From Auanema rhodensis (lineage: Eukaryota; Animalia; Nematoda), in assembly GCA_964057225.1 (NCBI GenBank), contig OZ059897.1, positions 11,470,001-11,534,000 on the forward strand: a stretch of DNA of 64,000 nucleotides. The letters run 5' to 3'. Numbering within the stretch: the first letter of the stretch is position 1; the number at the start of each line of letters is the position of its first letter. Below, piece by piece: positions 1,774 to 49,869 of this stretch. Below the pieces are notes generated by a model that had not been told where the DNA came from, did no database searches, and worked only from the letters and a program-made list of their open reading frames with translations. The position numbers were made by a program, and so were the translations under genes.

Positions 1774-2743
1774 AGTAGAGAGCCGTGCAAAATTTACTAA
1801 CCACGCCCCCAAACAGCTGTCAAAAACATACTTTTGGGGGCGTCAGCTGCTAAAAACATACTTTTGGGGCGCGTCAGCTGTCAAAAACATATTTTTGAGC
1901 GTCAGCTGTTAAAATCATATTTTGGGATCATGGTTCATGGATTTTCCTTTTTTAAACTTAAAAATCATGATTTAAAGCATGATTAAAATTTTTTTTTTAA
2001 AATCAAAATTAAATATGCTTTTTTAAATGTATATATATATATATATATATATAATTATATATTTTTAATTAATTTTTAAATATATTAAGTGAAAAAAAAA
2101 TTATATTAAAATTAATTAATTATATTTAAATTTTATATTTATAAATTATATTTAAATTTTAAATATTTAAATTATATTTAACCTTCATATATATAAATCA
2201 TATTTAAATTTTAAATATATTAATTTGTTTTAAAATTTTATTTATTTCTTTATTCATTTATTAATTATGTTCGTTTACTTATTCTGTTTACTTATTTTGT
2301 TTATTATTTTATAATATTGTTTTTTTTACTGTTTTTGTTTTTAAAGATCAATAAAATTTTTGCATGTAGATAATTTTGTTCACCGTACTTGTTATGGGTA
2401 ATTCAATGGAACACATATCGAAAGTTAATTCGATAAGAACGATATGAAATACCAAAATTTAATGGAACACATATCGAAAGTTAATTCGATAAGAACGATA
2501 TGAAATACCAAAATTTAATGGAACACATATCGAAGGTTAATTCGATAAGAACGACATTAAATTATTAATTTTTGAAATTACAAATTGTTATTAATTATAT
2601 TTATTCTAACAATTAAAAGTTTCAAATTAAAAGAAAAGATTAGTTTTAAACTTTATTTTACTAATATAACAATACAATAACTAAATAGAGCACACATTGA
2701 AGGTAAATACAATAAGATTAACAAACAGTTGCGCTGACCTCAA
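1774..2743 (+). repeat. Left TIR of Maverick A (~970 bp)
   Basis: Reverse complement of 14876-15841; four ~30-bp CAGCTG repeats (1805-1925), AT-rich core, three ~56-bp palindromic repeats (~2406-2555). Confidence 0.92.
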
Positions 2744-2950
2744 TGAAACGCATAAAGTTAATTTAATAAGAACTAATAACAAAAATTAATCCGACGGTTA
2801 CAATAAAAACAGATGTATTCAATAAGCTTATTTATTTTAAAGTTTATCGCAACTACTAGTTTTGACAGCTGTACCCAAATCCATGTTACATAACAAATTA
2901 CAATGCCAACAGCAATGTGTAGACTGATGTATTCATTATATCAAGGTACA

Positions 2951-5900
2951 ATGGCTGCTAATAGGTTGTGTCTTTTTGATTATTTGTTTGTAAACTTTTT
3001 CTTTTTTTAGTTATAAACGTTTATGTGAAGAGCTAGGATTTGATTATGAAGAAATCAATCAGCTCAGGTAATTTAACAATATTTTGAATCTTTATATATA
3101 TTTTGTTTTTTAGTAAACGTATAAAGTTTACCGAGGCTGGTGGGATCGAGCTCTGTGAGCCCACATCAACCACTTTTAACAGTGGGCCCTCATCATCAAG
3201 GGTTATTGAAGTAATAACCTTGGATGACAGTGATGAGTAAGCGATATTAAAATTATAACATTTAGTTTTTTCTTTTTAAGCGAATGGGATCCTGCTACCC
3301 CATCAACCAGTGGAGGGCAAGTCGGATATGGAGCGACATTCAACGATGTCTGTAAAATAGAGGTGCGATCTTTTATTTACATATTATTTCATAATATATC
3401 TTTTGAAACATGAAATTTTCTCTTGCTCCAATTGCATATTTTGAAAACATTTTGAAATTTATTTCTCTTTTTCAATTGCATTCATAAAATTCTCTCTTTC
3501 TCATCTTTACATTTCATCTCAATCTATATCTTTTATCAAACAAATTGCAAATATTTTGAAATTTATATATTCATTCTTTTGAACAGCATTCATTTTAAAA
3601 TCTTTACATTTCATCTCACTATCTATCTATCTTTCCTCATCTATCTTTCTTTCAACCGATTTTGAATTCTTACAAATTATAAATATTTCAAACATTTTGA
3701 ACTAGTAAAATAATAAAACACAATCTTGACCTTTCCATTTATTTTTAAACATTAACAAATGTTTATAAAAGTTTTTTCAAAGTTGAAAAAAAAAATTTAT
3801 ATTTAAAAATCAAATGCCATTTATTTTTAATAAAAGAATATAAAAATAATTTAAAGAAAAGTAAATTTATTAAAAGTTATAAACAAAAATTATTTATATT
3901 TAAATTAAAAGCGTATAACCATTATAAAAAATATGTATTATAGTGGTCACACCGACGCATAAAACGAACTGGTCGGTTCACCAACGTGGTCGTTTGATCG
4001 CTCACGTTCCCACATTTGGAAGCCATTAATGAGCCAATGCATGTTGTCATGCCGCGGCTATTTAATGAGTTTCTTGATCGGTGCCTTGCTGAAAGTGGTG
4101 TGCCAGATAAACAAAAAGCACTGTTTTGTTTATCAATAGAGCACCCATCCTTTGAAAAGGGATCCATATTTATGGATTTCCGTAGAAGGGAGCATTTGGA
4201 TGGCGTTGTCATCATGAATGCCATCAGCAAGGTGCAGCAATCAAAGCGAGAGGCTGTAATTAGCCAGGCAATGAATATTGAAATGTATGTGTTTGATGAA
4301 AGACCGGTGCAGCCAAGCCTGATGCCTGGTGAAGGTAGAGTTGGTTTCTATTTTGATGCCGAACTCAAAATACCTGGCACAATTGAAAACACTGACACTC
4401 ATTGCCTGGCTAGAGCAGCAGTTGTGGGAATGTGGAGAGCCGATGAAGAGGCAGCAGAAGATGTTGTTGAGAAGCGGAGGATTCAAAATCTTTGTCGCAA
4501 CTACATCTTGTTGCCAAATCAACCACATCATATCAATTTATTAAATAGGTGTGGTATTTCTGTACATTTACCAAATTATAATTTGAATCATTTAAATACT
4601 ATTGCAAGTTGTAATACAGACTATAAGTTTGTAGTATACGCTAGGCCACCTGGACAGCGTATGTACGCTATTCAGCGTATCTTTAATGAAACGGCTAGCA
4701 AAGTGGTAACACTAGGCTACCGAAATAATCATTATGACTATATTACAACTTGTAGTAGATCACAGCTTTTTGATGGTATTATATGCCAACACTGTGAATT
4801 ATCTTACAAAACAGTGTTGCATAGATGTAAAGCCAAGTGTAAGAAATGCCACACCTTAAAATGTAATTCGATGGAAAATGTGGTTGAAAGTAGCATAAGA
4901 TGTGATAGTTGTAGAGTTTTGTTTAAAACTCGTCAATGCTTTGACAAGCATATTAGAAAAACATGTCGAATGTTTAAGGTAATTTAAAAAATATATATAA
5001 AATTTAACAAGACTAAATTCAGACATGTGAAAACTGTGATCATTATCACAGAGTACGTGCTGATAGACCGTACAATTGCAATGAGAAATTTTGCAAAAAG
5101 TGTGGTCAGACAAAGCCTGAAGATCATTCTTGTTGTTGGGTACCACCTAACGACAAGAAGAAGGATCAGTTAAAAAAGAGGCAAGAGAAATACAAGGTTT
5201 GTATTTAACATCTTTACAAGTGTAATGCTTAATTGTTTAAGATTATATTTTATGACTTTGAAACGGTTGTGTTAAAAAACGGAACAAATGTTCATGAATA
5301 TGCAGATGAACAATGGCCCAATATGGTTGTGTATAACAAATTTTGTGAAAGTTGTATAGATGCCAACTCATGTGAAAAATGCACAACCAAGGAGGGCCAT
5401 TTTGGGTATCAACAAGGTGATAGTGAATGGTCTGTAACAGATCGTTTCCTTGATTGGTTACTTAACTCTGTTGAGAATGATAATGCAATTTTGATTGCGC
5501 ATAATGGTTCACGCTTTGACATACATTTCTTGGTGTCTAGGCTGATAAACCGTGGTATATATCCTGATCCAATTTTAAATGGGACCAAGATTATAAGCAT
5601 GGTTGTCAAGCCTTTAAGAGGTCAAAAATTTAATTATTTATATTTTAAAGATAGTTATTTATTAGTGCCTTCACCCTTATCAGCGTTACCCAAGGCATTT
5701 GGTGTACCTGATATGAGTAAAGGACAGTTTCCTTACCTCTTTAATCATCCAATAAATTATGGCAAAGTGTTGCCATCTTTACCACCAAAACAGTACTATT
5801 GTACTGCTAGAATGAAAGCAGAAGACCTAGCTTTATTCAATATTTGGTATGAATAGCGTAATCAAAGAGCGTTTGATTTTGATGAAGAGCTTTTGGAATA

Positions 5901-7957
5901 TTGTAGGACAGATGTCCGTATTTTAACCAACTGTATGAAAGTTTACATGAAGTTGGCAACCGCCACCACTGGCTGGAATCCTGTCATACAATGTATGACA
6001 TTTGCCAGTTTCTCTTTATTCCAGGCAAGTTTTTTAAAATACAAGCATTTTCAAAACTAGTATATTACAGTTGAAAATGAACCACATTAAAGAGAACCAA
6101 GTGGGTATTCTGCCCGAGACTGGTTATTATGCCGGTCAAAAGCAGAGTATATTAGCCATAAAGTATATAAAATGGCTAGAACAAGGATTGGGCCGCCCAT
6201 TAATGCATAAGCTTAATGGTGGCGAATTTGCAGTGAGAGTAGATGACCATCGCTATCTACTCGATGCTTATGACCCCGTTGCCAATCATGGCTATGAGGT
6301 GAGTAATTTGTAATAAATGTAAAAAATGCAAATTTTTGTAGATTAATGGTTGTATTTACCATGGTTGCCCCCAGTGCACCAACAAGAGCGCTATAGCACC
6401 AGGCAGAAATGGTGAAACAATGGAAGAGGTAATTGATAATTTTTAATCATTTTAATTTGAAAAATTTAGGTTTATGATAAAACCATGAAAAGGCTTCAAG
6501 CAATTCAAAGCCAAGGCATTAGTGTTACCACAGTGTGGGAGCACGAAATTAATGCTCAAATTTCGGCCAATGAAGAAATGGCGAAATTTATGCGTGAAAC
6601 AAATGTTGTTACACGCTTGGCACCTAGAGATGCCTTTACCGGTGGCCGCACCCAGACATATAAGCTTTTGGCACAAGCTTCGGATAGATACTCGCTCGAG
6701 TATGTGGACTTTTGTTCACTATATCCATATGTCACCGCTTTTGATGCCTATTACCCTGTAGGTAATCCCAAAGTGATTACTGAGGGTTTCAAAAGCTTTG
6801 AGACATGTTGCCCATACAAGGGGCTAGTAAAATGTGACGTGCTTGCACCCACAAATTTGCTGTACCCTGTATTAGGTACACGTATTGGCGGTAAACTAAT
6901 TTTTACAAACTGCCGCACTTGTGCAGTCAAAAGTAAAAATGTAGCATGTGACCACCAAAATGATGTAAATGCTAGAAAGCTGCATCTAACTGTGACACAA
7001 GTTGAGCGTGCCATACAACGTGGCTATAAAGTGCTTCATGTGCATGAGGTGTGGCACTGGGAAGAATGGCAACAAGGCGGCCTGTTTAAAGAATTTGAAG
7101 AAAAGGTATGTTTTGATAAAAGTATCACATTAAATAGAATTTTTCAGGTAATATATCTCCAAGAGCACGAGGAGAACACTGGTGTTGCTCTGGAGAGCAA
7201 TAAAATTGAAAAGAATGCTGCCATGCGTAGCATTGCCAAACTGCAGCTAAATAGGTTTGTAAACTTTTAAAAACAATACATTACAAATTTGCTTATAGTG
7301 TCTGGGGTAAAATGGGTCAAAGACCTGATAAAGCCCAAACCAAGATTATTGGTGTTGAGGACCCAGAAATTGGTAGGATCATTACTGATCCTGCAAGGGA
7401 ACTCACTGGGTTCAAAATTGTGGATAATGTTGCGTACTGCACAACAGTACCAGAGGATTCACATTTGGCGCCACCGCCTTTTACAAATGTAGCTATTGCG
7501 GCCTATACAACCGCTCATGCAAGGCTACTATTGTATAAGGCAAAGGAGAAAAATGGAAAGAATTTGGTGTATACAGGTAATTTTATACTTTGTATTCAAT
7601 TTAAACTTCAGCAAAAGTTTATAGTTATAAACTTGTAAATGCAGCTGGTGATGTAAAATATGTAACAAAGGCAAAGGGAGTGGTAAGTACGAGCTTTGAC
7701 TTTTCAAATAATTTTATAATTTTCAGACGTTGGACCACACGGCAGCATCAGTGGTAAACTTTGAAAGTATGGAGCGACTGGTTCGCGGACTCGTTATGGA
7801 TGGAGAGAAATTGGTTTTAAAAACCAATACAACCTTGTAAAAGAGGCAACTCGGTGCCATATCCACAATGGATATGACAAAAAGTACTAAAGTTGTAATG
7901 GATAAACTTTGTTATCTAGACGATTATAGTACTTTACCCTACGGTTATTGTGAATAA
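2951..7957 (+). pseudogene. Spliced protein-primed family B DNA polymerase of Maverick A (leader, putative terminal protein, OTU-like, Cys-rich, exonuclease, Vsr-like, polymerase)
   Basis: Introns 2965-3010, 3068-3113, 3237-3280, 3363-3943, 4979-5022, 5197-5241, 6025-6070, 6299-6341, 6429-6469, 7106-7147, 7255-7298, 7577-(deleted), 7683-7726. Motifs YDFET, AHNGSRFD, DFCSLYP, KLQLNSVWGK, KAKG, TLPYGY. Stops near 3995, 5854 and 7838; motif C lost by deletion. Confidence 0.9.
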
Positions 7958-8094
7958 GTTTTAATATATTTGAATTTATAAATTTTATTATTGCGTGTAT
8001 ATTTGTATATGGTTGTATTTATAGATTTTTATTTATAGTTGTATTAATAAATTTTATTCTTCTCATCAAATGTTTTAAAGAATTTATTACATAC

Positions 8095-8897
8095 ATTACA
8101 AACTGGTATCAATATATGGAGCACTTTGCGAGTTTATCTTCTATAGCCATAGCTAATCCAGCGTTTAGATCAAACTCTTGAATGAGCAAATGTACATCGC
8201 TGATATCTACTTTCAAATTTGGAAACTCCTCCTTTAATGTAGTATCCTTGTTTTCATTATTCCAGCCTAGAGTGTCAATTAAAAAGTTATCACGGTTTGG
8301 ATATGCAGTTAGCTCCATTTTTGAATAGTTTACAAACAGTCGCTCTTGATTAAATAGGTCGATACTGACGGGAGCAGCCATCTCACACAATATGCCATTT
8401 TTTACAAGCGTTTGACGCGTTCTAAATCCAGCACTGGATGCATTATCTATATATCTATCAGCATAATAGCCTGATATGGCAAGTTTGCTCTCTTTAACAT
8501 CGTTGCTATACATTTAAATATTCTCGATATATGTTTTATAGGCATGATTCACGGTAGAGTCATACACGCTAACATCGCCAATTTTCAAATGATACGAATG
8601 TATTAAACTGGCAGCAAATTGTTGACATGGTGCAAAAACAAGGTTGTCTGGTACTGGATCACCGTTTGTGGTTACAATTTTAAATTTTACATTCAACCAA
8701 CATCTTCTCAGATTGAGGAATGATTTGGAATTTTGAGCTATAACAAATTCCCATGGTCCTTGAGGAAGAAAAGTATTTTTCAAAGGGACTTGTACAGTAC
8801 GAGTAGACTCTACACCTAATGCCGACGCTGGTATATCACCATAGTTGATATTAGATAAAAGGGCTTGTGCTGATTTTGAATCTATCAATTTAGCCAT
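8095..8897 (-). pseudogene. Major capsid protein (double jelly-roll, PY-like), copy A, with stop and C-terminal deletion
   Basis: ORFs 8514-8897 and 8109-8513 match the 425-aa ORF of copy B; ~540 bp deleted near 8124. Confidence 0.85.
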
Positions 8898-9362: not shown

Positions 9363-9401
9363 GCGCGCAATACAAAAGTTACACTAGATCATTCTACTAA
9401 A

Positions 9402-9857
9402 ATGTATTCGTCTGAAATAGTATCACTATTGCAATCTGTCCCCAGCACTCGGAAACTATTCCTCGGTGTATACAGCGCTGATACTCTACCCAAAACGCGT
9501 CGTAAAAACTTTGCACTTGTCGTAAATACTGACACACATGATAAGCCAGGCACACATTGGCAGGTCATCTTTGTCCGTAACAAGCAAGCCTATTTTTTCT
9601 GTAGCTTGGGATATAAAATGAACAAGTACATTCAAAATTATCTGGCCAAATATAAAAAGGTAAAAATTAATACTTGCAAACCACAACGTTTAATTGAATA
9701 CACTTGTGGTGGCTATGTGGTTTTTGTAATACTAATGTTGTCGGCTGGTAATTCATTTGAAAGCATTTGTTCATTTTTTAAACTATTGAAAAATGATGAT
9801 GTCTTTATTAAAGCGTTTATGCATAAAGTATTCGACTATAAATTGGCTACTATATAA
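9402..9857 (+). CDS. Adenain-like cysteine protease (Maverick PRO), copy A
   Basis: NTD...PGTHW...FFCSLG...PQ...TCGGY; start inferred from copy B (MYSSEI). Confidence 0.85.
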   Translation: MYSSEIVSLLQSVPSTRKLFLGVYSADTLPKTRRKNFALVVNTDTHDKPGTHWQVIFVRNKQAYFFCSLGYKMNKYIQNYLAKYKKVKINTCKPQRLIEYTCGGYVVFVILMLSAGNSFESICSFFKLLKNDDVFIKAFMHKVFDYKLATI

Positions 9858-9898
9858 GAAATTTGTCATTAATAACCTGCTACATTACGTGATCAGTT

Positions 9899-10069: not shown

Positions 10070-10110
10070 AAGTGGGTTGATTGCGTGTGGTCGTTTTTCA
10101 TTTTCCTCTA

Positions 10111-11440: not shown

Positions 11441-11519
11441 GACAAACCACCACTTGATACGTGTACACTACTGCAAATGAAATCATTTGCATTTTAGGTA
11501 CATTTACGAGTGGTTGATT

Positions 11520-12167
11520 ATGGTTTTCAGCTTCAAACTACCCAGTCAGACAACTGTAATAGGTGCTACCCAATGCGGTAAAACAACCCTCATAAAGCAC
11601 ATATGTGAAAATACTGAAAAGTTTTTCAACGTCCCCATTGATAGAATATTCTGGTTCAGTCAATGTGGGTCATCGTCAGGTGTACCAATAAATGATGAGC
11701 GTTTAATAATTATTCAAGGGCCACCTGATCCTGATTTAATAAAAGAACAAAAGGGAGTAAATACTATACTAGTGCTGGATGATTTGATAAACTTTTTTTC
11801 ATCGAATAAAGCAGCAAAGGAATTACTCAACAACATTTTTACAGTGTGGGCACATCACTGGAATTTGGCAGTGTTTAATCTTGTGCAAGCGGCATTTCAA
11901 CTGGACAGGACCAGTCGAATCAATAGTACATATATAATACTGATGAAAAGTCATTCAGATATATTACAAATACGTAATTGTCTGCAGCAATTATTTGGGC
12001 CACGTTTCAAAAATGCTCTAGAGGCGTATAATGATGCAATGTCTACTCCCTATAGTCATTTACTGATTGACAATCATCCTTTAACAAGTGAGAAGCAGCG
12101 TATACTATCTGATAGAACAGCGGAGAACCCTATTGTTTATGTTGCCAGAAATGTGTTTAGTGTTTAA
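11520..12167 (+). CDS. A32/FtsK-like genome-packaging ATPase, copy A
   Basis: Walker A GATQCGKT, Walker B LVLDD, RINSTY; ATG at 11520. Confidence 0.9.
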   Translation: MVFSFKLPSQTTVIGATQCGKTTLIKHICENTEKFFNVPIDRIFWFSQCGSSSGVPINDERLIIIQGPPDPDLIKEQKGVNTILVLDDLINFFSSNKAAKELLNNIFTVWAHHWNLAVFNLVQAAFQLDRTSRINSTYIILMKSHSDILQIRNCLQQLFGPRFKNALEAYNDAMSTPYSHLLIDNHPLTSEKQRILSDRTAENPIVYVARNVFSV

Positions 12168-12404: not shown

Positions 12405-13360
12405 ATGAAGCACGAAAACATGGCATTTCAAAGGTACAAGTTGATGATTTTTTGCAAGATTCTGAAACTTTTACACGACATAAACCAACCAGAATGCGTA
12501 TGCAGACTAAAAAGACTAGAGGATGTGGTCGATTTCTAACAGTGCAAGCAGATTTGGTTGATATGCAAAAATATAAAAAATTAAACGACGGCTATGCTTA
12601 CATGTTGACCATGATTGATGTTTATACACGCATATTATATGTTAGGCCTTTGAAAACTAAAGGTGGTATAGAGGTTGCTAGTGCATTTGAAAGTTTATTC
12701 AAGAATTTTATACCAATTCAGTTGATTACTGATAATGGCACAGAGTTTTATAATAGTCATTGTGAAAAACTATTCAAAAAGTTTGCCATACTGCACGGAT
12801 CTAGAAGTTCACCACAAAAGGCTGCAATGGTGGAGCGAGCAAATAGAACTTTAAAAACCCGCATGATGAAATATCTCTATTACAAGAATAATCATCGTTG
12901 GATTGATATCCTAGATGATTTGGTTGAAGGAATAAACAAATCTTATAATCGGTCAATTAAAATGCGGCCCATTGATGTTAAAGCAAATATATTCATTGAA
13001 GAATATGCACCAGCTGTTAAAAGCCGCTTTAAAATTGGTGATACTGTTCGCATAAGCAAAAATAGGCGTACTTTTGAAAAAAGCTACGAGTCTGGATATA
13101 CAATGGAGCTATTCACAATTGATGAGGTTGTAACCGGAAACCCAACCGTGTATAAACTTGTAGATTATAATGGTGAACGTATAAAGGAAACATTCTACGA
13201 ACCTGAACTTGTCTTGGCTACTAATAAAAGTAACAAGTACTATATAGAAAAAGTTTTAAAAGAGCGTACTCGGAGCGGTAAACGTCAAGTTTTTGTAAAA
13301 TGGAGTGGATATCCCGACAACTTTAATGAATGGATAGATGCAGAAAATTTAAATGTATAA
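12405..13360 (+). CDS. RVE integrase with C-terminal chromodomain, copy A (N-terminus deleted)
   Basis: QADLVD, TDNGTEF, VERANRTLK triad; KIGDTVRI; YYIEKVL...VKWSGYP...NEWI chromodomain. Confidence 0.9.
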
Positions 13361-14241: not shown

Positions 14242-14875
14242 TTCCGCTAAAGATCCAACTTTCTAAAATATAAGGCAAACTTGCAGAGAGGAGCAGTCTA
14301 TGGCGATTGGCAAAGAGTGGCAGGAGATGGTGAAACGTCGGATCCTCGGATAGTTGGCAGAGCTGAAATGTAAATGTAGCAAAATTGCCAACCTTTTATA
14401 CAAAGATTTTTGTAAAGTACAACCCATTGTGTTACAATCAAGTTTGCTGATGAAATTCTCTTATTAATTAGATTTTACAGCATATTTATGCAGATATACT
14501 CATCTCATCGACAGTTGCCAGCAGTTGGCGCACTCTGAACCTGTAAACAATCTGCATATTAATTAGTTTTTACATCTCTTTTAACATTATTGTTTACCGT
14601 TTGTGCCATAAACAACAGCCATCTCTGTAAAACATTTAGGCTTTTTAAACTTTGCTTAATAGCTCATATATTATTCATAGTATACTTTTACACCCATATT
14701 GTAGCACAAAACATATGACTGCCAACGTTTTATATGTGAAAAATATTTCATTCTTGAATATTTAATAATGATTATATTACGAAACTAAAACTTTTGAAAT
14801 GTTAAAATGATTATACTATATTTAGAACCCCACAGTGCAGTTATTAGTGTTTATTAACCATCGATATGCGTGGCG

Positions 14876-15841
14876 TTGAGGTCAGCGCAACTGTTTGCTA
14901 ATCTTATTGTATTTACCTTCAATGTGTGCTCTATTTAGTTATTGTATTGTTATATTAGTAAAATAAAGTTTAAAACTAATCTTTTATTATAATTTGAAAC
15001 TTTTACTTGTTAGAATAAATATAATTAATAACAATTTGTAATTTCAAAAATTAATAATTTAATGTCATTCTTATCGAATAAACCTTCGATATGTGTTCCA
15101 TTGAATTTTGGTATTTCATATCGTTCTTATCGAATTAACCTTCGATATGTGTTCCATTGAATTTTGGTATCTCATATCGTTCTTATCGAATTAACTTTCG
15201 ATATGTGTTCTATTGAATTATCCATAACAAGTACGGTGAACAAAACGATATACATGCAAAAATTTTATTGTTCTTTAAAATAAAAACAATACAAAAACAA
15301 CACAATAAAAAATAAACAAAATAAGTAAACAAACATAATTAATAAATATAATAAATGAATAAATGAATAAAATTTTAAAACAAATTTATATATTTAAAAT
15401 TTAAATATAATTTATATATAAAATTTAAAGTTTAAATATAATTTATATATATAAAATTTAAATATAATTTAAATATTTAAAGTTTAAATATAATTTATAT
15501 ATATATAAAATTTAAATATAATTTAAATATTTAAAATTAAGATTTTTATTTTTACTTAATATATTTAAAAATAATTAAAAATATATACCTACATTTGAAA
15601 AAGCATATTTAAATTTGATTTAAAAAAAAAAATCATGCTTTAAATCATGATTTTCAAATTTAAAAAAGGAGAATCCATGAACCATGATCCCAAAATATGA
15701 TTTTAACAGCTGACGCTCAAAAATATGTTTTTGACAGCTGACGCGCCCCAAAAGTATGTTTTTAGCAGCTGACGCCCCCAAAAGTATGTTTTTGACAGCT
15801 GTTTGGGGGCGTGGTTAGTAAATTTTGCACGGCTCTCTACT
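14876..15841 (-). repeat. Right TIR of Maverick A
   Basis: Mirror of 1774-2743, ending GCACGGCTCTCTACT. Confidence 0.92.
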
Positions 15842-34986: not shown

Positions 34987-37080
34987 GCAGCAATCAAAGC
35001 GAGAGGCTGTTTTAATAAAAGTATCACATTAAATAGAATTTTACAGGTGATATATCTCCAAGAACACGAGGAGAACACTGGTGTTGCTCTGGAGAGCAAT
35101 AAAATTGAAAAGAACGCTGCCATGCGTAGCATTGCCAAACTGCAGCTAAATAGGTTTGTAAACTTTTAAAAACAATACATTACAAATTTGCTTATAGTGT
35201 CTGGGGTAAAATGGGGCAAAGACCTGATAAAGCCCAAACCAAGATTATTGGTGTTAAGGACCCAGAAATTGGTAGGATCATTACTGATCCTGCAAGGGAA
35301 CTCACTGGGTTCAAAATTGTGGATAATGTTGCGTACTGCAGAACAGTACCAGAGGATTCACATTTGGCACCACCGCCTTTTACAAATGTAGCTATTGCGG
35401 CCTATACAACCGCTCATGCAAGGCTACTATTGTATAAGGCAATGGAGAAAATTGGAAAGAATTTGGTGTATACAGGTAATTTTATACTTTGTATTCAATT
35501 TAAACTTACATTATTTAGACACGGATTCACTAATTTATCAAAGGTGCCTGGATGAGCCAGATCCAATTGAGGATATGAAGGGTGAATGGTTAGGTAAACT
35601 AACCTCTGAAATACCCGATGGTTGGTCAATGACCAAGTTTGTATCACCAGTAGCAAAAGTTTATAGTTATAAACTTGTAAATGCAGCTGGTGATGTAAAG
35701 TATGTAACAAAGGCAAAGGGAGTGGTAAGTACGAGCTTTGACTTTTCAAATAATTTTATAATTTTCAGACGTTGGACCACACGGCAGCATCAGTGGTAAA
35801 CTTTGAAAGTATGGAGCGACTGGTTCGCGGACTCGTTATGGGTGGAGAGAAATTGGTTTTAAAAACCAATACAACCTTGTTAAAGAGGCAACTCGGTGCC
35901 ATATCCACAATGGATATGACAAAAAGTACTAAAGTTGTAATGGATAAACTTTGTTATCTACAAGATTATAGTACTTTACCCTACGGTTATTGTGAATAAG
36001 TTTTAATATATTTGAATTTATAAATTTTTATCATCTTGTATATATTTGTATTTATAAAATTTTATCATTGTACATGTATTTATTTTTAAAAATAGTTGTA
36101 TTAATAAATTTTATTCTTCTATCTTTTAAAAAATTCATTACATACATTACAAACTGGTATCAATATATGGAGCACGATTGTTGTCAATGGAAAGAATAGA
36201 GTCATACTCTGCATAAACAATTGCATATAAGCCCTCTTGCGGCGTTTGTTGACCAAATTCCAATTTCAAGGCTACATTACCTTGTCGTATAACATCAAAT
36301 AACTCTGACGAATGCACAGTACGACTAATATCAAATACAAAAAATGTGAAACCAACTTTATACATTGCTGGTGTAATACCATTGGATGAATCTGTACGAC
36401 CAAGCCCCAAACCTTCCAGCATGTCAATATATGCTGTGGCATAGGAAGATCGCCATTCTAAATTATAAGGACGGGTAGGTATTACCCTATTGTTGAGCGT
36501 CAAGTATATATTTTTCAAATCAAACGGTTTAAAGTTGAATGGCGAATGTTTAAAAGTACCATTATAAGCGTGTGCGCCGACAAGACCTACTACAACACGT
36601 TTTGGTGTATGAGACGTGAATAATATATTATTAGGTGAATCCAAGCGGCCTCCTTCTATGAAATAAGAGCGCATTTTCACTGATGTCATGGGGTAGTGTA
36701 TTCGATCTTTTGCGAGTTTATCTTCTATAGCCATAGCTAATCCAGCGTTTAGATCAAACTCTTGAATGAGCAAATGTACATCGCTGATATCTACTTTCAA
36801 ATTTGAAAACTCCTCCTTTAATGTAGTATCCTTGTTTTCATTATTCCAGCCTAGAGTGTCAATTAAAAAGTTATCACGGTTTGGATATGCAGTTAGCTCC
36901 ATTTTTGAATAGTTTACAAACAGTCGCTCTTGATTAAATAGGTCGATACTGACGGGAGCAGCCATCTCACACAATATGCCATTTTTTACAAGCGCTTGAC
37001 GCGAGCACTGGATGCATTATCTATATATCTATCAGCATAATAGCCTGATATGGCAAGTTTGCTCTCTTTAACATCGTTGC
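34772..37080 (+). mobile_element. Internally deleted Maverick A derivative (215-bp TIR tip, 24-bp pol patch, pPolB 3' exons, MCP 3' part)
   Basis: AGTAGAGAG at 34772; pol exons ~35011-35999 with intact spliced YTDTDS; MCP C-terminal 275 codons at 36147-36974(-). Confidence 0.9.
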
Positions 37081-39193: not shown

Positions 39194-42100
39194 ATGGCTG
39201 CTAACAGGTTGTGTTTTTTCCTATCTTTTTTTTTAATTAAAATATTTATTTTCAGTTATAAGCGTGTATGTGAAGAGTTGGGGTTCGATTATGAGGAAAT
39301 TTATCAACTCAGGTAATTTAACAATATTTTTAAAATATACATCTTTGTTTTTTTTTTAGTAAGCGCATAAAACTTACCGAGAGTGGTGGTGTTGAGCTGT
39401 GTGACCCCGCAATAACCACTTCCAATAGTGGTCCCTCGTCATCAAGGGTTATTGAAGTTATCACCTTGGATGACAGCGATAATGAGTAAGCTATCATATA
39501 ATGAAAAAGCATGAAATTTTTTTTTTCAGAGAATGGAATCCCGAGATGCCATCAACTAGTGGAGAACAATTAGGAGGCGGTTCATCCTTCAACGATGTTT
39601 GTCAAATAAAGGTACGAGCTTTTAACCTTTTTTTTTTTACATGTTACAATTCTTTTCACTCTATATCTTTTATTTGATTACATATCTTGAGCAATTTTGA
39701 ATTCTGCCATCTATTTTTAAACAAATCATCATACATTTGGTGGCTTTTTGAAAAATAAAATAAAATCTTATCCCAAATCCATGCAATAATATCATTTATT
39801 AAATTTTTATTCATTAAAATACACTTAAATTTAAATATTTTGATGCTCAAAAACTGACACATTTAAATATTTTGTATTTTTTAAATCATTTCACTCCATC
39901 TCTTTTATTTAATTTCATATTTTAAACAATTTTAAATTTTTACCACTACTTTATAATTTTTATTTATTAAACTTTTTAATCATTAAATTACACTTAAATT
40001 TAAATATTTTGATGCGCAAAAACAGAAACATTTAAATATTTTGTTTTTTCTAAACCATTTCACTCCATCTATTTTAAACAATTTTATATTTCTACCACTA
40101 TTTCATAATTTCATTTTTTAAATTTTTAATCATTAAAAAAAAAAACATTTAAATTTCAATATTGTGATGCTCAAAAACTGAAACATGAAATTGATTTATG
40201 TTTTCTAAGCCATTTCACTTCATCTCTTTTATTTAATCACATATCTTGAACAAATTTAAATTTCTATCACTTTTTCATAATTTCGTTTATTAAATTTTTA
40301 ATCACTAAAAAACATTTAAATTTCAATATTGTGATGCTCAAAAACTGAAACATGAAATTGATTTATGTTTTCTAAGCCATTTCACTTCATCTCTTTTATT
40401 TAATCACATATCTTGAACAAATTTAAATTTCTATCACTTTTTCATAATTTCGTTTATTAAATTTTTAATCACTAAAAAACATTTAAATTTCAATATTGTG
40501 ATGCTCAAAAACAGAAACATTTAAATATTTTGTATTTTCTAAACCATTTCACTTCATCTCTTTTATTTATATATATTTTAAACAATTTTATAATTCTACT
40601 ATTATTTAATTTTTATTTATTAAATTTTTAAACATTAAAAAAAAATGATGCTCAAAAACTGAAACATTTAAATATTTTGTATTTTTCTAATCGTTTTGAA
40701 ACAAACTAAACATATATTTGAAAACATTTCAATTAAATAAAAAAAAAATAACGACTATAACAAACAAAGAGACATAATAATTTTAAGCAAAAGATGAAAC
40801 AATTCATATATATTCTTAAAACTATTTTTATTTAAACTTTTAAAAATAAAAATAAAAAAAGCATGTAAACTGTTATAAATGTTGTTTATTATAGTGGTCA
40901 CACCGGCGCATAAAACGCACCGGTCGTTTTACCAACGTGGTCGTTCGATCGCTCACGTTCCCACACTTGGAAAATGTTGATGAACCAATGCATGTTATCA
41001 TGCCGCGGTTATTCAACGAATTCCTTGATCGTTGTCTTGCTGAAAGCGGTGTGCCTGATAAGCAAAAAGCCTTATTTTGTTTATCAATTGAGCACCCTTC
41101 CTTTGAAAAGGGCTCCATATTTATGGACTTTCGTAGAAGAGAGCATCTCGATGGCGTAGCCATTATGAATGCCATCAGCAAGGTGCAGCAATCAAAACGA
41201 GAGGCTGTAATCAGCCAGGCAATGAATATTGAGATGTATGTGTTTGATGAAAGGCCAGCGCAGCCAAGCCTGATGCCTGGTGAAGGTAGAGTCGGGTTTT
41301 ATTTTGACCCCGAACTCAAAATACCTGGAACCATTGCCAACACTGACTCACATTGTCTGGCTAGATCAGCAGTTGTGGGAATGTGGAAAGCTGACGAGTT
41401 GGCTACTGAAGATGGCGATGAGAAGCGAAGGCTGCAAAACCTTCGTCGCAATTACATCTTATTGCCAAATCAGCCACACCATATCAATTTATTAAATAGG
41501 TGTGGTATTTCTGTAGATTTACCAAATTATAATTTAATTCATTTAAACATTATTGCCAGCTGTAATACAAACTATAAGTTTGTAGTATATGCTAGACCGC
41601 CTGGACAGCGTATGTACACTATTCAGAAAATATTTAATGAAGCGGCTAGCAAATTGGTAACACTAGGTTACCGAAATAATCACTATGATTGTATTACAGC
41701 TGGTAGTCGTTCAAAAATTTTTGATGGTATTATATGTCAACACTGTAAGTTATCTTACAATACAGTGTTGCATAGATGTAAAGCCAAATGTAAAAAATGC
41801 CACACCTATAATTGTAATGCGATGGGGAATGTGGTTGAGAGTAGCGTGAGGTGTGATAGTTATAGAGTTTTGTTTAAAACTCAACAATGCTTCGATAGGC
41901 ATTTGCGAAAAGCCTGCCGAAAATTCAAGGTATTTTGAGAAAATTTAAAGTTGTACATAACAAGCTTAAATTCAGACATGTGTGGCGTGTGATCACTATC
42001 ACATGGTCCGTGCTGATAGACCGCACAATTGCAATGAAAAATTCTGCAAAAAGTGCGGTCAGACAAAGCCTGAAGAGCACTCTTGTTGTTGGGTTCCACC

Positions 42101-45100
42101 TAACGACAAGAAGAAGGCTCAGCTAAAAAAGAAGCAAGAAAAGTTCAAGGTTTGTATTTAACATCTTTACAAGTGTAATGCTTACTTGTTTAAGATTATA
42201 TTTTATGACTTTGAAACAGTTGTGTTAAAAAACGGCACAAATGTTCATGAATATGCAGATGAACAATGGCCCAATATGGTTGTGTATAACAAATTTTGTG
42301 AAAGTTGTATAGATGCCAATTCCTGTGAGAAATGCACAACCAAGGAGGGCCATTTTGGGTACCAACAAGGTGATAGTGAATGGTCTGTAACAGATCGTTT
42401 CCTTGATTGGTTACTCAACTTTTCTGAGAATGATAATGCAATTTTGATTGCGCACAACGGGTCGCGCTTTGACATACATTTCTTGGTGTCTAGGCTGATA
42501 AACCGTGGAATATATCCTGACCCCATTTTAAATGGGACCAAGATTATTAGCATGGTTGTCAAGCCTTTAAGAGGTCAAAACTTTAACCATTTATGTTTTA
42601 AAGATAGTTATTTACTAGTGCCTTTACCCTTATCAGCGTTACCCAAGGCATTTGGTGTACCTGATATGAGTAAAGGACAATTCCCATACCTCTTTAACCA
42701 CCCAATAAATTATGGCAAAGTGCTACCATCCTTGCCACCAAAGCATTACTATTGTACTGCTAGAATGAAAGCAGAAGACCTAGCTTCATTCAATATTTGG
42801 TATGAGGAGCGTAATCAAAGTGTGTTTGATTTTGATGAGGAGCTTCTGGAATATTGTAGGACAGATGTCCGTATTTTAACCAACTGTATGAAAGTGTACA
42901 TGAAGTTGGCAACCGCCACCACTGGCTGGAATCCTGTCATACAATGTATGACATTTGCCAGTTTCTCTTTATTCCAGGCAAGTTTTTTAAAATACAAGCA
43001 TTTTCAAAACTAGTATATTACAGTTGGAAATGAACCACATTAAAGAGAACCAAGTGGGTATTCTGCCTGAGACTGGTTATTATGCCGGCCAGAAGCAGAG
43101 TATAATTGCCATAAAATACATAAATTGGCTAGAACACGGATTAGGCCGCCCATTAATGCATAAGCTTAATGGTGGTGAATTTGTTGTGCGAGTAGATGGC
43201 CAACGCTATCTACTTGATGCTTATGACAGTGTGGCTAATCACGGCTATGAGGTGAGTAATTTGTAATAAATGTAAAAAATGATAAAATTTTGTAGTTTAA
43301 TGGCTGTATTTATCATGGTTGCCCCCAGTGCACCAACAAGACTGCTATTGCACCAGGCAGAAATGGTGAAACAATGGAAGAGTTAATTGTGACTTTTTTA
43401 ATCATTTTAAGCTGAAACATTTAGGTTTATGAAAAAACCATGAAAAAGCTTGAGGCTATTCAAAGCCAGGGCATTAGTGTAACCACTTTGTGGGAACACG
43501 AAATTACTGCTCAAATGTCATCAAATGAGCAAATGGCAAATTTTATGAAGGACACTGAGGTTGTAACTCGATTGGCACCTCGAGATGCCTTCACCGGCGG
43601 CCGAACTCAAACATATAAGCTTCTGGCCCAAGCTTCGGATAGATACTCACTAGAGTATGTGGACTTTTGTTCACTTTATCCATATGTAACGGCATTTGAT
43701 GCCTATTACCCTGTGGGTAATCCTAAAGTGATTACTGAGGGCTTTGAGAGTTTTGAGGCATGCTGCCCATACAAGGGCCTTGTGAAATGTGACGTGCTTG
43801 CACCCACAAATTTGTTGTATCCTGTATTAGGAACACGCATAGGCGGTAAATTAATTTTTACAAACTGCCGCACATGTGCAAACAGAGGCAAAAATGTAAC
43901 ATGCCCGCACCAAGATGATGAAGACGCTCGAAAGCTGCATCTGACTGTAACGCATGTAGAGCTCGAATGTGCCATACAGCGTGGCTACAAAGTGCTTCAT
44001 AGTTATGAGGTTTGGCACTGGGATGAATGGCAGCAAGGAGGCCTATTCAAGGATTTTGTACAAAAGTACATAAAAATTAAGCAAGAGGCATCGGGCTGGC
44101 CTAAGCCAAATATGACAGAGGCTGAAAAGGTATGTGTCATGAAAAGTATGGCATTAAATAGAATTTTACAGCTAAAATATCTCCAAGACCACGAGGAGAA
44201 CACTGGTGTTGCTCTGGAGAGCAACAAAATTGAAAAGAATGCGGCCATGCGTAGCATTGCCAAACTACAGCTGAATAGGTATGTAAACTTTTAAAAATAA
44301 AAATTTACAAATTTGCTTATAGTGTATGGGGTAAAATGGGTCAAAGACCGGATAAAGCCCAAACCAAGATTATTGGTGTTGAGGATCCTGAAATTGGTAG
44401 GATCATAACTGATCCTGCAAGGGAACTCACGGGCTTCAAAATTGTGGACGATGTGGCGTACTGTACAACAGTGCCAGAAGACTCACACTTGGCACCAGCG
44501 CCGTTTACAAATGTAGCCATAGCGGCTTATACAACCGCTCATGCAAGGCTACTATTGTATAAGGCAATGGAAAAAATTGGAAAGAACTTGGTGTATACAG
44601 GTAATTTTATACTTTGTATACAATTTAAATGTACATCATTTAGACGCCGATTCTCTAATTTATTTAAAATGCCTGATCCAATTGAGGATATGAAGGGTGA
44701 ATGGTTAGGTAAACTAACCTCAGAAATACCCGATGGATGGTCAATGACCAAATTTGTTTCACCAGCTGCAAAAGTTTATAGTTATGAGCTAGTAAATGCA
44801 GCTGGCCAGGTCAAGTATATCACCAAGGCAAAGGGAGTGGTAAGTATAAAAATATATTATTGAGAAACTTTTTAAAATTACAGACGCTGTACCACACGGC
44901 AGCCACCGTGGTAAACTATCAAAGTATGGAACGATTGGTTCGAGGACTCGTGATGGATGGAGAAAAATTGGTTTTAAAAACCAAAACAACGTTATTAAAG
45001 AGGCAGCTTGGTGCCATATCCACGATGGACATGACAAAGAGTACCAAGGTCGTAATGGATAAACTTTGTTATCTAGACGATTTTAGTACTTTACCCTATG

Positions 45101-45114
45101 GTTATTGTGAATAA
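39194..45114 (+). pseudogene. Spliced pPolB of Maverick B
   Basis: Same intron positions as A (e.g. 39612-40894, 41930-41975, 42150-42194, GC-AG 42978-43023); intron-9 donor GT>TT near 43383; motif C reads DADS, followed by a 10-nt deletion. Confidence 0.9.
39820..40700 (+). repeat. AT-rich ~168-bp tandem repeat in pPolB intron 4 of copy B
   Basis: Recurrent GATGCTCAAAAACTGAAACAT; units starting ~40143 and ~40311 are essentially identical. Confidence 0.8.
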
Positions 45115-45252: not shown

Positions 45253-46585
45253 TTACAAACTGGTATCAATATATGGAGCACGATTGTTGTCAATTGAAAG
45301 AATAGAGTCATATTCTGCATAAACAATAGCATATAAACCCTCTTGCGGTTTGTTGACCAAATTCCAATTTCAGGGCCACATTACCTTGTCGTATAACATC
45401 AAATAACTCGGACGAGTGTACAGTCGGTGAAATATCAAATACAAAAAATGTGAACCCAGCTTTATACATTGCTGGTGTAATACCATTGGATGAATCTGTA
45501 CGACCAAGGCCCAAACCTTCCAACATGTCAATATATGCTGTGGCATAGGAAGAACGCCATTCTAAATTATAAGGGCGGGTAGGTATTACCCGATTGTTGA
45601 GCGTCAAGTATATATTTTTCAATTCAAACGGTTTAAAGTTGAATGGCGAATGTTTAAAAGTACCATTATAAGCGTGTGCGCCGACAAGACCTACTACAAC
45701 ACGTTTCGGTGTATGCGACGTGAATAATATGTTATTGGGTGAATCCAAACGACCTCCTTCTATGAAATAAGATCGCATTTTCACTGACGTCATGGGGTAG
45801 TGTATTCGTTCCTTTACAAGTTTATCTTCTATAGCCATAGCTAATCCAGCGTTTAGATCAAACTCTTGAATAAGCAAGTGCACATCGTTGATATCTATTT
45901 TCAGGTTTGGAAACTCCTCCTTCATTGCAGCATCTTTGCTTTCATTATTCCATCCAAGTGTGTCAATTAAGAAATTATCACGGTTTGGATATGCAGTTAG
46001 CTCCATTTTTGAATAGTTTACAAACAGTCGTTCTTGATTGAATAAGTCGATACTGATGGGAGCAGCCATCTCACACAATATGCCATTTTTAACAAGCCCT
46101 TGTCGCGCTCTAAATCCAGGACTGGCTGCATTATCTATATATCTATCCGCATAATAGCCTGATATGGCAAGTTTGCTCTCTTTAACATCGTTGCTATACA
46201 TTAGAATATTCTCAATATATGTTTTGTAGGCATGATTCACGGTAGAGTCATACACGCTAACATCACCAATTTTTAAATGATACGAGTGTATCAAACTGGC
46301 TGCAAATTGTTGGCATGGTGCAAAAACAAGGTTGTCTGGTACTGGATCGCCGTTTGTGGTTACAATTTTGAATTTTACATTCAACCAACACCTTCTCAGA
46401 TTAAGAAATGATTTGGAATTTTGGGCTATAACAAATTCCCATGGTCCTTGAGGAAGAAAAGTATTTTTTAAAGGAACTTGTACAGTACGAGTGCATTCAA
46501 CACCTAATGCCGACGCCGGTATGTCACTATAATTAATATTAGGTAAAAGTGCTTGTGCTGATTTTGAAACTATCAATTTAGCCAT
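45253..46585 (-). CDS. Major capsid protein (PY-like), copy B; 2-nt deletion near the C-terminus
   Basis: 425-aa ORF (GPWEF, PKRVVVGLV, SPFNFKPF, FFVFDIS); true C-terminus visible in 36147-36974. Confidence 0.88.
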
Positions 46586-47050
46586 TTAAATACGATACGA
46601 CCGCTCACGAGTTATGCACAGACGCTTATGAGGTTTTGTGGTTTTGCGTCGTCGCCGCTTGCCCAAACCGGTAAGATCTCGTATAGCCTGCCGGCCGGCT
46701 GTTTTAAGAGTTTGCTTGATATTATCACCCTTGAGCACCCCATCAACAATTTCATTGCTAGTTTTTAGCAACTGGCCGCCAAGAGGTGAATTTACAACTG
46801 GACTATTGCTTACAGCACTGGATAATGCATTCCTTCCAGCATTGATGAGATTTTGGGCTATAGGTGATTGAATAATGCGTGGTAAAAACGATGCCAAAGT
46901 TGCCAGTATACCACCCAGGCCATGACCTCTCTGCATTCCACGTTGAAACATCATTCCACTAAATGGCGCCCCACCCATTTGTTGATTCAAAAGTGTTGTC
47001 CATTGAATTGAGTTCAAGTCTAGAAGGAGGTGTGGCATATTGAACCGCAC
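46586..47050 (-). CDS. Basic core-like protein (PZ-like)
   Basis: QMGG, QRGHGLGG, amphipathic middle, Arg/Lys tail; stop abuts the MCP ATG (TAAATG). Confidence 0.7.
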   Translation of the reverse strand: MRFNMPHLLLDLNSIQWTTLLNQQMGGAPFSGMMFQRGMQRGHGLGGILATLASFLPRIIQSPIAQNLINAGRNALSSAVSNSPVVNSPLGGQLLKTSNEIVDGVLKGDNIKQTLKTAGRQAIRDLTGLGKRRRRKTTKPHKRLCITRERSYRI

Positions 47051-47088
47051 GCGCGCAATACAAAAGTTACACTAGATCATTTTACTAA

Positions 47089-47544
47089 ATGTATTCGTCT
47101 GAAATAGCGTCACTATTGCGATCTGTCCGCATCACTCGAAAACTATTCCTAGGTGTATTTAGCGCCGATACTCTACCCAAAACACGTCGAAAGAACTTTG
47201 CACTTGTTGTAAATACTGACACACACGATAAACCGGCCACACATTGGCAAGTCATCTTTGTACGTAATGATCAAGCCTACTTTTTCTGTAGCTTGGGTTA
47301 TAAAATGAACAAGTACATTCGTCATTATCTGGCCAAATATAAAAATGTAAAAGTTAATACTTGCAAACCACAACGCATAATTGAATACACTTGTGGTGGT
47401 TATGCAATATTTGTAATACTAATGTTGTCAGCTGGTAATACATTTGAAAGCATTTGTTCATTTTTTAAACTATTACAAAACGATGATGTCTTTATTAAAG
47501 CGTTTATGCATAAAGTATTCGACTATAAATTATCTAGCATATGA
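47089..47544 (+). CDS. Adenain-like cysteine protease, copy B
   Basis: THW...FFCSLG...PQ...TCGGY. Confidence 0.85.
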   Translation: MYSSEIASLLRSVRITRKLFLGVFSADTLPKTRRKNFALVVNTDTHDKPATHWQVIFVRNDQAYFFCSLGYKMNKYIRHYLAKYKNVKVNTCKPQRIIEYTCGGYAIFVILMLSAGNTFESICSFFKLLQNDDVFIKAFMHKVFDYKLSSI

Positions 47545-47590
47545 TCAACTTCGCCATTAAAACGTCACCTGCTACATTAGGTGGTCAGTT

Positions 47591-47761
47591 ATGAATATTC
47601 CCTGTCACTGTGAATTATGTATAAGATACACGTTGGAACAATCTGTGCCAACACCCCTGTACAAAAAGATTTTGAAACGTATTTCAGTGCCATTCATTAA
47701 AGGAATATCTCTGGGACTAGGCTTTTGTACAACACTAGTCATTATTCCACTCATTATATAA
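47591..47761 (+). CDS. 56-aa CxCxxC tail-anchored protein, copy B
   Basis: Homolog of 9899-10069. Confidence 0.65.
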   Translation: MNIPCHCELCIRYTLEQSVPTPLYKKILKRISVPFIKGISLGLGFCTTLVIIPLII

Positions 47762-47802
47762 AAGTGAGTTGACTGTGTGTGGTTGTTTTTTATTTTCCTC
47801 TA

Positions 47803-48267
47803 ATGGAACTTTTATGTAACAAGTATTGTGTTACGTGCAAGGAAATATTTTCATCAGCCAAGCATTTTAGTGATCACGTATTGAAAAGACATGACGGGAT
47901 TCAACCCGTATGTAACAGTTATATCAGCAATGCTGACTTTATTCAAAAATATGGACATTTGGATGGTGTTCGTAGACGTTTGTGCCCTTATTGTAGTGAA
48001 ACTTTTGGAACAAGATTCAATTGTCAGCGTCATATTCGGCGTCTTCATAATAGTAATGGAACGAATGGTAAAGATGGTGATGGAAATGATACCAGCGAAC
48101 CCTCTGAAAAAACTGAGGAGTTTGTACAGTCAACCGAACCAAAACGATGCCGCTGCAATAGTAACCGAGAATATTCACAACACGAGCCGCGCATCGAACA
48201 AAACGGCGCTGAACTACCTTTTAAACCTTCGAAAATCGTAATGTGGTCTTGTATAACTGTTGAATAA
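47803..48267 (+). CDS. Two-finger C2H2 protein overlapped by a 116-aa hydrophobic ORF (47891-48241)
   Basis: CVTC..HVLKRH and CPYC..HIRRLH in one frame. Confidence 0.65.
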   Translation: MELLCNKYCVTCKEIFSSAKHFSDHVLKRHDGIQPVCNSYISNADFIQKYGHLDGVRRRLCPYCSETFGTRFNCQRHIRRLHNSNGTNGKDGDGNDTSEPSEKTEEFVQSTEPKRCRCNSNREYSQHEPRIEQNGAELPFKPSKIVMWSCITVE

Positions 48268-48272
48268 AACAT

Positions 48273-49130
48273 TTATTTCACATTTTTAACATGTAATGTA
48301 ACAACTGTAGAACCATAATTAAATTGCATAGGGCGGCCAAATTCATCTAAAATTTCAATACGTATAGTATCGAGTGTTTGCTTAGTGATTGGTACATAAC
48401 GAATAGGATTAAATGTTTTGGCAATCATTTTACCAAATTCAGTAGGAGGTGGTACAGGTAAACATGCAAGTAAATTAGCTTTCACATTACCAAGAATGGA
48501 ATATTCTACAATATCACAATATATATACATTGTATTAATGTTATTTGAAAAATCAATGGGGCGCCTGGCTATTAACGTGTCGTTGATAATTTTATTCTCA
48601 AAGCCAAGAAAATATGCGAGATCATCACCGAGTGTTGCATTCAATAATAGCCGCTTACTTGTTACAAACTCTATGCGTTGTAGTGTTTTGTTAAACCGAA
48701 ACGTGGCGTCTGCCAGCATTTCCTTGACAAGTTTAGCCTCAGCTTGTCGATTATTATACCACTTTTTCACATCTTCATCTTTATCTATTAAACCCTTTAT
48801 ACGTGCTTCTTCCTCAGCTCCAAGAGGTTTAGTGCTGCTAGCAATAAATTGTTCTTTTCCAGCATTGATTCCGCGTATTATTTCATCACCATTTGCATAG
48901 TTACCCTTGGGTAAGTGCAGAATAAACTTTCTGTTGGAAAAACGTAGTGTATAAGAAAGATTTTCTTGTACATTTAATATCGAACACGGAAAAATTATGT
49001 CTGTCAGCCCAATGCAATATCTGTTATTGCGTAGCCTTAATGTTTCAGGTAACCTGGTAAGAAACACTGATGAGGTATTACTTTTTTCAGAGTCAACTGA
49101 TGACGGCAAAGTAATGTAAAAGTCATCCAT
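48273..49130 (-). CDS. Minor capsid/penton (PX-like), intact
   Basis: FYITLPS, YIYCDIVE, YVP, IRIEILDEFG, VTLH motifs typical of Polinton pentons. Confidence 0.85.
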   Translation of the reverse strand: MDDFYITLPSSVDSEKSNTSSVFLTRLPETLRLRNNRYCIGLTDIIFPCSILNVQENLSYTLRFSNRKFILHLPKGNYANGDEIIRGINAGKEQFIASSTKPLGAEEEARIKGLIDKDEDVKKWYNNRQAEAKLVKEMLADATFRFNKTLQRIEFVTSKRLLLNATLGDDLAYFLGFENKIINDTLIARRPIDFSNNINTMYIYCDIVEYSILGNVKANLLACLPVPPPTEFGKMIAKTFNPIRYVPITKQTLDTIRIEILDEFGRPMQFNYGSTVVTLHVKNVK

Positions 49131-49209
49131 CAGAGACCACCACCTGATGCGTGTACACTAGTATAAATGAAATCATTTGCATTATAGGTACATTTACGAG
49201 TGGTTGATT

Positions 49210-49857: not shown

Positions 49858-49869
49858 TGTGCATGTTCA

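Follow-up and report, generated by a model that had tools for sequence, protein, structure and literature searches.

The window, a stretch of 64,000 nucleotides (nt) of Auanema rhodensis DNA (contig OZ059897.1, positions 11,470,001 to 11,534,000 of the forward strand), is a nest of Maverick copies and other transposons. The element studied here is a Maverick/Polinton, judged by its terminal inverted repeats (TIRs), pPolB polymerase, rve integrase, capsid, ATPase and protease, and its polymerase likely belongs to the pPolB1 class, from 33-44% sequence identity to nematode, cnidarian and tardigrade proteins. An earlier note on this DNA had joined the fragmented polymerase frames into one gene through 13 introns, at the same positions in two subfamilies, A and B, and had described the virion and integrase genes as intronless. 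The gene model, codon-position bias and blind recovery of introns presented below uphold the first of these claims: this unusually intron-rich Maverick polymerase gene is real and has partial RNA support. The copies and the features of the gene are as follows.

1774 to 15841, Maverick copy A1, bounded by inverted repeats of ~1 kb
30062-37080, second A-type copy, rearranged
roughly 37900-53523, copy B, about 88% identical to A
2951..7957 (+), pPolB gene of copy A1, 14 exons; broken, with 3 stops, deletions and motif C lost
2951..3362 (+), four mini-exons (14, 57, 123 and 82 nt), open and in phase in A1, B and an inverted A copy at 31699-31290
2965-3010 (+), intron 1
3068-3113 (+), intron 2
3237-3280 (+), intron 3
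3363..3943 (+), intron 4, long: 581 nt; 546 in the inverted A copy and 1283 in B
4979..5022 (+), intron 5, 44 nt, phase 0
5197..5241 (+), intron 6, 45 nt, phase 0, shortly before Exo I
6025..6070 (+), intron 7, 46 nt, phase 0, GC-AG in both subfamilies
6299..6341 (+), intron 8, 43 nt, phase 0
6429..6469 (+), intron 9, 41 nt, phase 0
7106..7147 (+), intron 10, 42 nt, phase 0
7255..7298 (+), intron 11, 44 nt, phase 2, inside polymerase motif B
7577..7611 (+), intron 12, 35 nt in A1, phase 1, inside motif C
7683..7726 (+), intron 13, 44 nt, phase 0
39194..45114 (+), pPolB gene of subfamily B, 14 exons, with 13 intron positions identical to A1
35047..35999 (+), exons 11-14 of the second A-type copy, both motif C halves flanking the intron at 35476-35518

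Twelve of the A1 introns are GT-AG and one is GC-AG, and the reading phase is carried across all 14 exons (phases of introns 1-13: 2,2,2,0,0,0,0,0,0,0,2,1,0). These ends, together with a host-like length, mark the introns as U2-type spliceosomal; the median is 44 nt in the polymerase versus 43 nt in two neighbouring host genes (n=15; host introns 39-88 nt). The longest A1 exon is 345 codons, and PF03175 is found above its cut-off in exons 7 and 10 of both copies. Intron 12 is only 35 nt in A1 because a deletion spans its border with exon 13, removing the second half of motif C as well; the full form of 43 nt is present at 35476-35518 in the second A copy and at 44601-44643 in B. With in-frame stops at 3995-3997, 5854-5856 and 7838-7840 and in-frame deletions of 6 and 63 nt in exon 10, the A1 polymerase copy is dead. 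In B, exons 1-12 are stop-free in the spliced frame, the introns are 42-48 nt long apart from one of 1283 nt, and the defects are decay of the intron 9 donor and a frameshift in exon 13. The long B intron 4 has grown through tandem copies of a 167-nt unit (39786-40690). An AT-rich stretch at 5622-5650 was considered as an extra intron and rejected, being in-frame coding sequence in both copies.

Comparison of the two subfamilies supports the spliced frame. A/B mismatches at codon positions 1, 2 and 3 of the polymerase number 89/1303, 79/1302 and 287/1301, and a like bias is seen in the intronless ATPase (7, 6 and 41 of 228) and in the protease; purifying selection acts on the spliced polymerase frame. 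Within exons 1-12, indels between A and B keep the frame (3, 6 and 63 nt); those in introns can have any length. The short introns diverge by 16.7% (80/480), versus 22.1% at third positions. Intron 7 is identical in A and B (46/46), and third-position divergence in exon 7 is low too (31/261). If retained, 12 of the 13 A1 introns would introduce a stop or a frameshift. The 12 short A1 introns are unlike one another, and an introner origin was rejected: the best pair scored 22 versus a shuffled maximum of 22.3, and the best pairwise similarity was reached by 114 of 200 shuffles.

The introns were also recovered by a blind spliced alignment, in which a profile of 61 relatives was used and no coordinates were supplied. 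Introns 5-13 of A1 were found to the base (9/9), as were eight of nine in B, where only the degraded intron 9 donor was shifted. The aligner yields spurious calls in weak homology (loci L001-L003; N-termini of L004, L006 and L007), and the calls trusted here are short ones in conserved cores. Among 177 relatives, collected irrespective of introns, each of junctions 5-13 is crossed by 52-156 in alignments whose net gap does not exceed 3 residues; the motif-B junction is spanned in this way by 126/177 and the motif-C junction by 110/177, neither being spanned with a larger gap by any relative. Junctions 1-3 are spanned by 0/177 relatives and junction 4 by three, and introns 1-4 rest on open frames and on splice sites conserved in three copies. 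Alignment of the spliced protein to other pPolBs, which had been named as a check, is thus contiguous across junctions 5-13. The exon ends join gaplessly inside conserved motifs of the relatives, and the halves of motif C are intact around 35476-35518, which bears out the claim that splicing builds motifs B and C. Since neither motif exists without splicing, replication of the element needs the host spliceosome, as had also been proposed.

Public contigs, presumed to be RNA, provide junctions for part of the gene. Two 44-nt GT..AG joints in contigs of run X1 show introns 11 and 13 precisely skipped. The loose end of the X1 contig with the intron 11 joint matches the exon 10 end of copy B at 24/28 letters (by eye), in a stretch deleted in A1, which fits removal of intron 10 as well and an origin of the transcript from another copy. 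The start of a contig from run X2 matches the exon 8 end at 12/14 letters (by eye) and fits removal of intron 8; this contig appears to keep intron 9, as in a partly spliced molecule. The joined contigs are probably RNA, not DNA. Coverage has gaps at 2900-3415 and 3588-5823 and is uninformative on expression. The search for junction reads suggested in the earlier note was therefore answered in part, exactly for introns 11 and 13 and by fitting loose ends for introns 8 and 10, but from contigs whose RNA status is presumed and with introns 1-6 uncovered.

The intron-free block and a second spliced gene

The other core genes of the element lie between the polymerase and a second spliced gene, and their rows, with those of the TIRs, are given below (ORF, open reading frame).

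45308..51978, intron-free block of subfamily B: capsid, core-like ORF, protease, zinc-finger ORF, penton-like ORF, ATPase, two ORFs, integrase
45308-46585 (-), capsid ORF of B
48273-49157 (-), penton-like ORF of B
8124..8897 (-), major capsid protein gene of A1, 5′ part only; colinear with B and lacking any gap of intron size
9402..9857 (+), single-ORF adenain-like protease; Peptidase_C5 match (E 0.0015) under the curated cut-off
11481..12167 (+), packaging-type P-loop ATPase, single ORF; weak ATPase_2 match, below the curated cut-off; homologous to the ATPase ORF of L012, a metagenome locus described in the next section
12407..13360 (+), rve integrase with chromodomain, single ORF, 5′ end deleted in A1; PF00665 (E 7e-8), PF00385
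13460..14622 (-), second spliced gene, beside the right TIR, no Pfam match; in-frame introns at 14138-14099 and 13880-13836
1774..2780 (+), left TIR of A1, 88.6% identical over 1025 nt to 15841-14840, with its terminus at 1774
14840..15841 (-), right TIR of A1, partner of 1774..2780

In B, the ORFs of the block abut or overlap by a few bases, and intron-like stretches were absent from 9 of 11 B ORFs, with weak candidates only, inside two open ORFs. The B capsid ORF aligns over 96-99% of its length to five single-ORF relatives at 48-72% identity, one of which (66%) is from Auanema. Its structural model is a double jelly roll with a predicted local distance difference test (pLDDT) score of 66 (a single-sequence model reached only 31), and the top Foldseek matches are the capsids of PBCV-1, iridovirus, mavirus and Sputnik (best E 2e-12). 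The ATPase and protease match ORFs of the L012 gene set (E about 1e-14). The penton-like ORF has no sequence match in Pfam or PDB and a weak match to an L012 ORF; from its position, size and N-terminal pattern it may encode the penton protein. Because the capsid and integrase genes of A1 are partly deleted, their description as intronless rests on B and on the second A copy (36147-37016). The absence of introns from the virion and integrase genes accordingly stood for capsid, ATPase, protease and integrase, with the reservation that two of these are incomplete in A1; for the penton gene, the label itself is presumptive.

The core coding DNA amounts to about 10.5 kb, and all 13 introns fall in 4.1 kb of it (P about 5e-6 under uniform independent placement), a count that leaves out the second spliced gene. 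The division proposed between a spliced polymerase and unspliced virion and integrase genes is thus non-random, and it recurs in L012. Spliced genes had also been placed next to the TIRs, and the second spliced gene does adjoin the right TIR. Its last intron and last exon are kept in both subfamilies, the B counterpart lying at about 52050-52460 (-). This gene has a Cys/His-rich exon and, past its stop, a GT-AG stretch at 13507-13463 whose donor is kept in B (52094). Acceptor-like sites lie just 5′ of the start codons of both spliced genes, at 14623-14632 (-), the clearer of the two, and at 2935-2950 (+). Trans-splicing is a feature of nematodes, and these are possibly trans-splice sites. A fusogen-sized ORF was not seen in copy B, where no specific search for one was made.

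The motif-B intron in distant relatives

In seven of the 177 relatives, all of them records of ENA, Logan or NCBI, the alignment ends precisely at the motif-B site and is followed by the tail that read-through of a phase-2 intron would give. Introns in these protein relatives were inferred from protein tails, without DNA, and in the same manner the positions of introns 6 and 7 are implied in P0193 (64% identity), where the donor of intron 7 appears to be GT, that of intron 10 in P0028 and P0085 (55-57%), and that of intron 12 in P0051 (45%). A DNA pattern that joins motif B to a donor, and hence selects intron-bearing loci, returned 14 metagenome loci. In 13 of them a GT-AG intron of 52-158 nt begins at the same nucleotide and is followed by the rest of motif B; L017 was a chance match and was dropped. 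The 13 loci and the seven relatives are 29-39% identical to the focal polymerase, and most of the loci carry further introns at other sites. One of them, L021:393-4926 (oriented to the match), holds an independent pPolB gene. Its 12 called introns measure 52-91 nt, and it has only the motif-B site in common with the focal gene, a site at which its nearest tree neighbour reads through. In L012, whose polymerase is 38% identical, single-ORF genes for ATPase, integrase, a penton-like protein, capsid and protease come after the end of a spliced polymerase; the last two are cut by the contig end or incomplete. Other intron sites also recur, two codons downstream of the focal motif-C intron (L010, L014 and P0102) and inside motif A (L011 and L016). 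The motif-B intron was found in 0/8 loci of a viral collection; a single-protein scan of viral contigs gave no match, and the intron-selective pattern gave 0 matches there.

A tree was built from 21 intron-bearing rows and 19 rows of read-through ORFs, with five near-duplicates and rows of unknown source or from gene models excluded. On this tree the motif-B intron requires 10 changes, a count that transcript assemblies among the read-through rows could inflate, and at least five are forced by strong branches. Monophyly of the intron-bearing rows was rejected (approximately unbiased (AU) test, p 9.7e-8), so the motif-B intron either is ancient with many losses or arose several times at one site. 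Most introns were gained separately by the lineages, while this one site was used repeatedly, whether through loss of an old intron or as an insertion hotspot. Introns show a weak enrichment at conserved columns (p about 0.006 for 28 positions across lineages, motif-B site excluded), in which detection bias is possible; enrichment was not detected for this gene alone (p 0.15). Judged from these sequences, spliced pPolB genes are not unique to the window and appear widespread.

A proposed role of splicing between provirus and virion

No intron-bearing polymerase of an animal Maverick was described in the literature searched, Repbase entries and paper supplements being outside its scope. The sources cited here and below were available as excerpts, and within these nothing on spliced Maverick polymerases is found in PMC6431247, PMC5803895, PMC12220804, PMC11296320, PMC8502044, 10.1101/2024.03.25.586562 or PMC11414722. 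Intact vertebrate elements are reported to show no introns (PMC8097293), in agreement with Kapitonov and Jurka 2006, and the core genes of a nematode element are described as lacking introns, while the cargo of nematode elements is intron-bearing and lies near a TIR (Widen preprint, 10.1101/2022.07.12.499685). The excerpt of the Jeong preprint (10.1101/2023.08.22.554363) never mentions spliceosomal introns, and the Jeong eukaryote survey set minimum lengths of 650 residues for tBLASTn matches and 900 for ORFs. Since the longest exon here is 345 codons, such length filters would exclude the focal gene. The question of novelty raised in the earlier note thus has a divided answer: described nematode and vertebrate Mavericks are reported as intronless, but motif-B and other introns occur in many distant pPolBs. 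Genes of this kind appear undescribed in the searchable literature, and a spliced class of Mavericks has likely been missed by surveys demanding long unbroken genes. Mavericks are described and searched for as intronless, and a spliced element would be discarded or taken for a degraded one; estimates of copy number and host range, and 'dead' calls, may therefore be biased.

The element shares with nematode and vertebrate Mavericks the TIRs, pPolB, rve integrase, ATPase, adenain-like protease and double jelly-roll capsid, and the intron-bearing cargo near a TIR of the nematode elements resembles the right-end gene here. It differs in that their core genes, polymerase included, are reported to be intronless, whereas here the polymerase has 13 introns, two of them inside catalytic motifs. 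Two gene classes marked by spliceosomal introns are also reported for Punuivirus, an endogenous giant virus of Chlamydomonas in which latency genes are intron-enriched and virion-phase genes are under viral promoters (10.64898/2026.10.09.758095). Punuivirus, however, is a nucleocytovirus of 617 kb with expression data and a mean of 2.5 introns per intron-bearing gene, whereas the present element is 14 kb and has its introns concentrated in the replicative enzyme. Polinton-like elements with spliceosomal introns also occur in dinoflagellates, where the introns of eupolintoviral elements are mobile introner copies, mostly acquired after integration (PMC12166617). Unlike these, the 12 short introns of A1 are mutually dissimilar, older than the A/B split and confined to certain genes. 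In adenovirus, the E2B polymerase is protein-primed and related, and its spliced early mRNA starts with a tiny upstream coding exon, like the 14-nt exon 1 here; the body of that polymerase is, however, one long ORF and the late genes are also spliced, whereas here the catalytic core is cut.

We favour, with a probability of roughly 0.55, the reading that the polymerase is spliced like a host gene from the provirus and that the intron-free genes are expressed later from amplified viral DNA; an early/late two-class programme is plausible. The two inward-pointing, TIR-proximal spliced genes would be read first, from the integrated copy, as host-like genes, and introns in them would be tolerated and probably favoured, raising expression and weakening small-RNA silencing in nematode nuclei. 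In C. elegans, introns impede nuclear RNA interference and intronless transgenes express poorly (PMC5554785), so that keeping introns in provirus-read genes would be favoured. The compact late block would likely be transcribed later, from amplified DNA, and, being tightly packed, may be under selection against introns. Several points count against this reading. Maverick polymerases that lack introns are common and apparently work, so the life cycle can do without them. The contigs, ten in number and from three runs of one study chosen by species label and presumed to be RNA, have a depth of 2-4 and carry no readout of expression timing, strand or level. All copies in the window are damaged, an intact copy being absent from its 64 kb, and late genes were examined in two elements, that of the window and L012.

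It is possible, though we doubt it, that the introns are neutral and reflect no programme, having accumulated where genes have their own promoters and free space while packed genes cannot take insertions. The abutting ORFs of the B block would fit this, as would the mostly lineage-specific intron positions (L021 shares 1/12 called introns), the interleaving of intronless and intron-bearing relatives on the tree, and the little special constraint on short introns suggested by their divergence relative to third positions. Against it, a short intron in the 1.3-kb capsid or 1.1-kb integrase ORF would be harmless to neighbours, yet none is present here or in L012, and the motif-B site is reused across lineages. 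Improbable, to our minds, is a splicing switch, in which a weak intron, either intron 7 with its GC-AG ends or intron 9, is retained and truncates the polymerase in most cells, confining replication to one tissue or condition. The P-element transposase is a precedent for such a switch, and the unusual ends and identity of intron 7 in both subfamilies, the frame disruption by 12 of the 13 introns and the X2 contig from which intron 8 is gone but intron 9 apparently is not would agree with it. The low third-position divergence of exon 7 points instead to local homogenisation as a possible source of the identity, P0193 appears to have a GT donor at the intron 7 site, and partial splicing is expected in nascent RNA.

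That the gaps are decay or insertions in dead copies, and that the joined contigs derive from intron-lacking DNA, is largely refuted and very improbable. The damage to every copy in the window, the presumed RNA status of the runs and joined forms seen without comparison to DNA runs would allow such an artefact; it is opposed by 13 canonical-ended, host-sized gaps at the same places in two subfamilies, by exact blind recovery and codon-position bias, and by the same intron sites in relatives at 29-64% identity. Beyond the preferred reading of a polymerase spliced from the provirus, a wider proposal is offered tentatively and is more doubtful: animal Polintons may hold a large hidden class of spliced polymerases, with an ancient motif-B intron lost repeatedly and splicing separating provirus-phase genes from intron-free virion-phase genes. 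If so, the intronless elements of the literature would be a filtered subset. The contrast between gene classes offers a direct test of the passage from provirus to virion production, and the recurrent motif-B intron a clean case for intron age versus parallel gain in a horizontally moving virus.

Surroundings of the copies

The flanks of A1, tested for a target-site duplication of 5-6 bp, differ; the nest is rearranged, and the two ends may derive from separate insertions. The left flank (1343-1773) matches an internal part of copy B (47586-47999) at 97% identity, placing A1 inside another Maverick. At 32411-34986 an essentially perfect inverted repeat of 1017 nt joins A-type termini to B-type internal DNA, and is either a rearrangement or an assembly artefact. 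A 55-56-nt tandem unit is present inside the TIRs of both subfamilies (2398-2577, 15048-15222, 37933-38989 and 52867-54168) and is expanded in B; these units are a possible protein-binding array. Two host genes on the plus strand, at 56227-57550 and 59460-62100, which we take from their translations to encode a phosphoglycerate dehydrogenase-like and a BTB-domain protein, were used solely as intron-size controls. Their intron sizes, together with the capsid relative from Auanema and the BEL/Pao and Tc3-like elements listed next, point to a nematode host. Other transposons in the window are a BEL/Pao retrotransposon at 17113-25325 (-), with long open ORFs and a Phlebovirus G2-like envelope domain, a Tc3-like transposase in one 328-codon ORF at 25968-26954 (+), and a mariner-like fragment at 37286-37807 (+).

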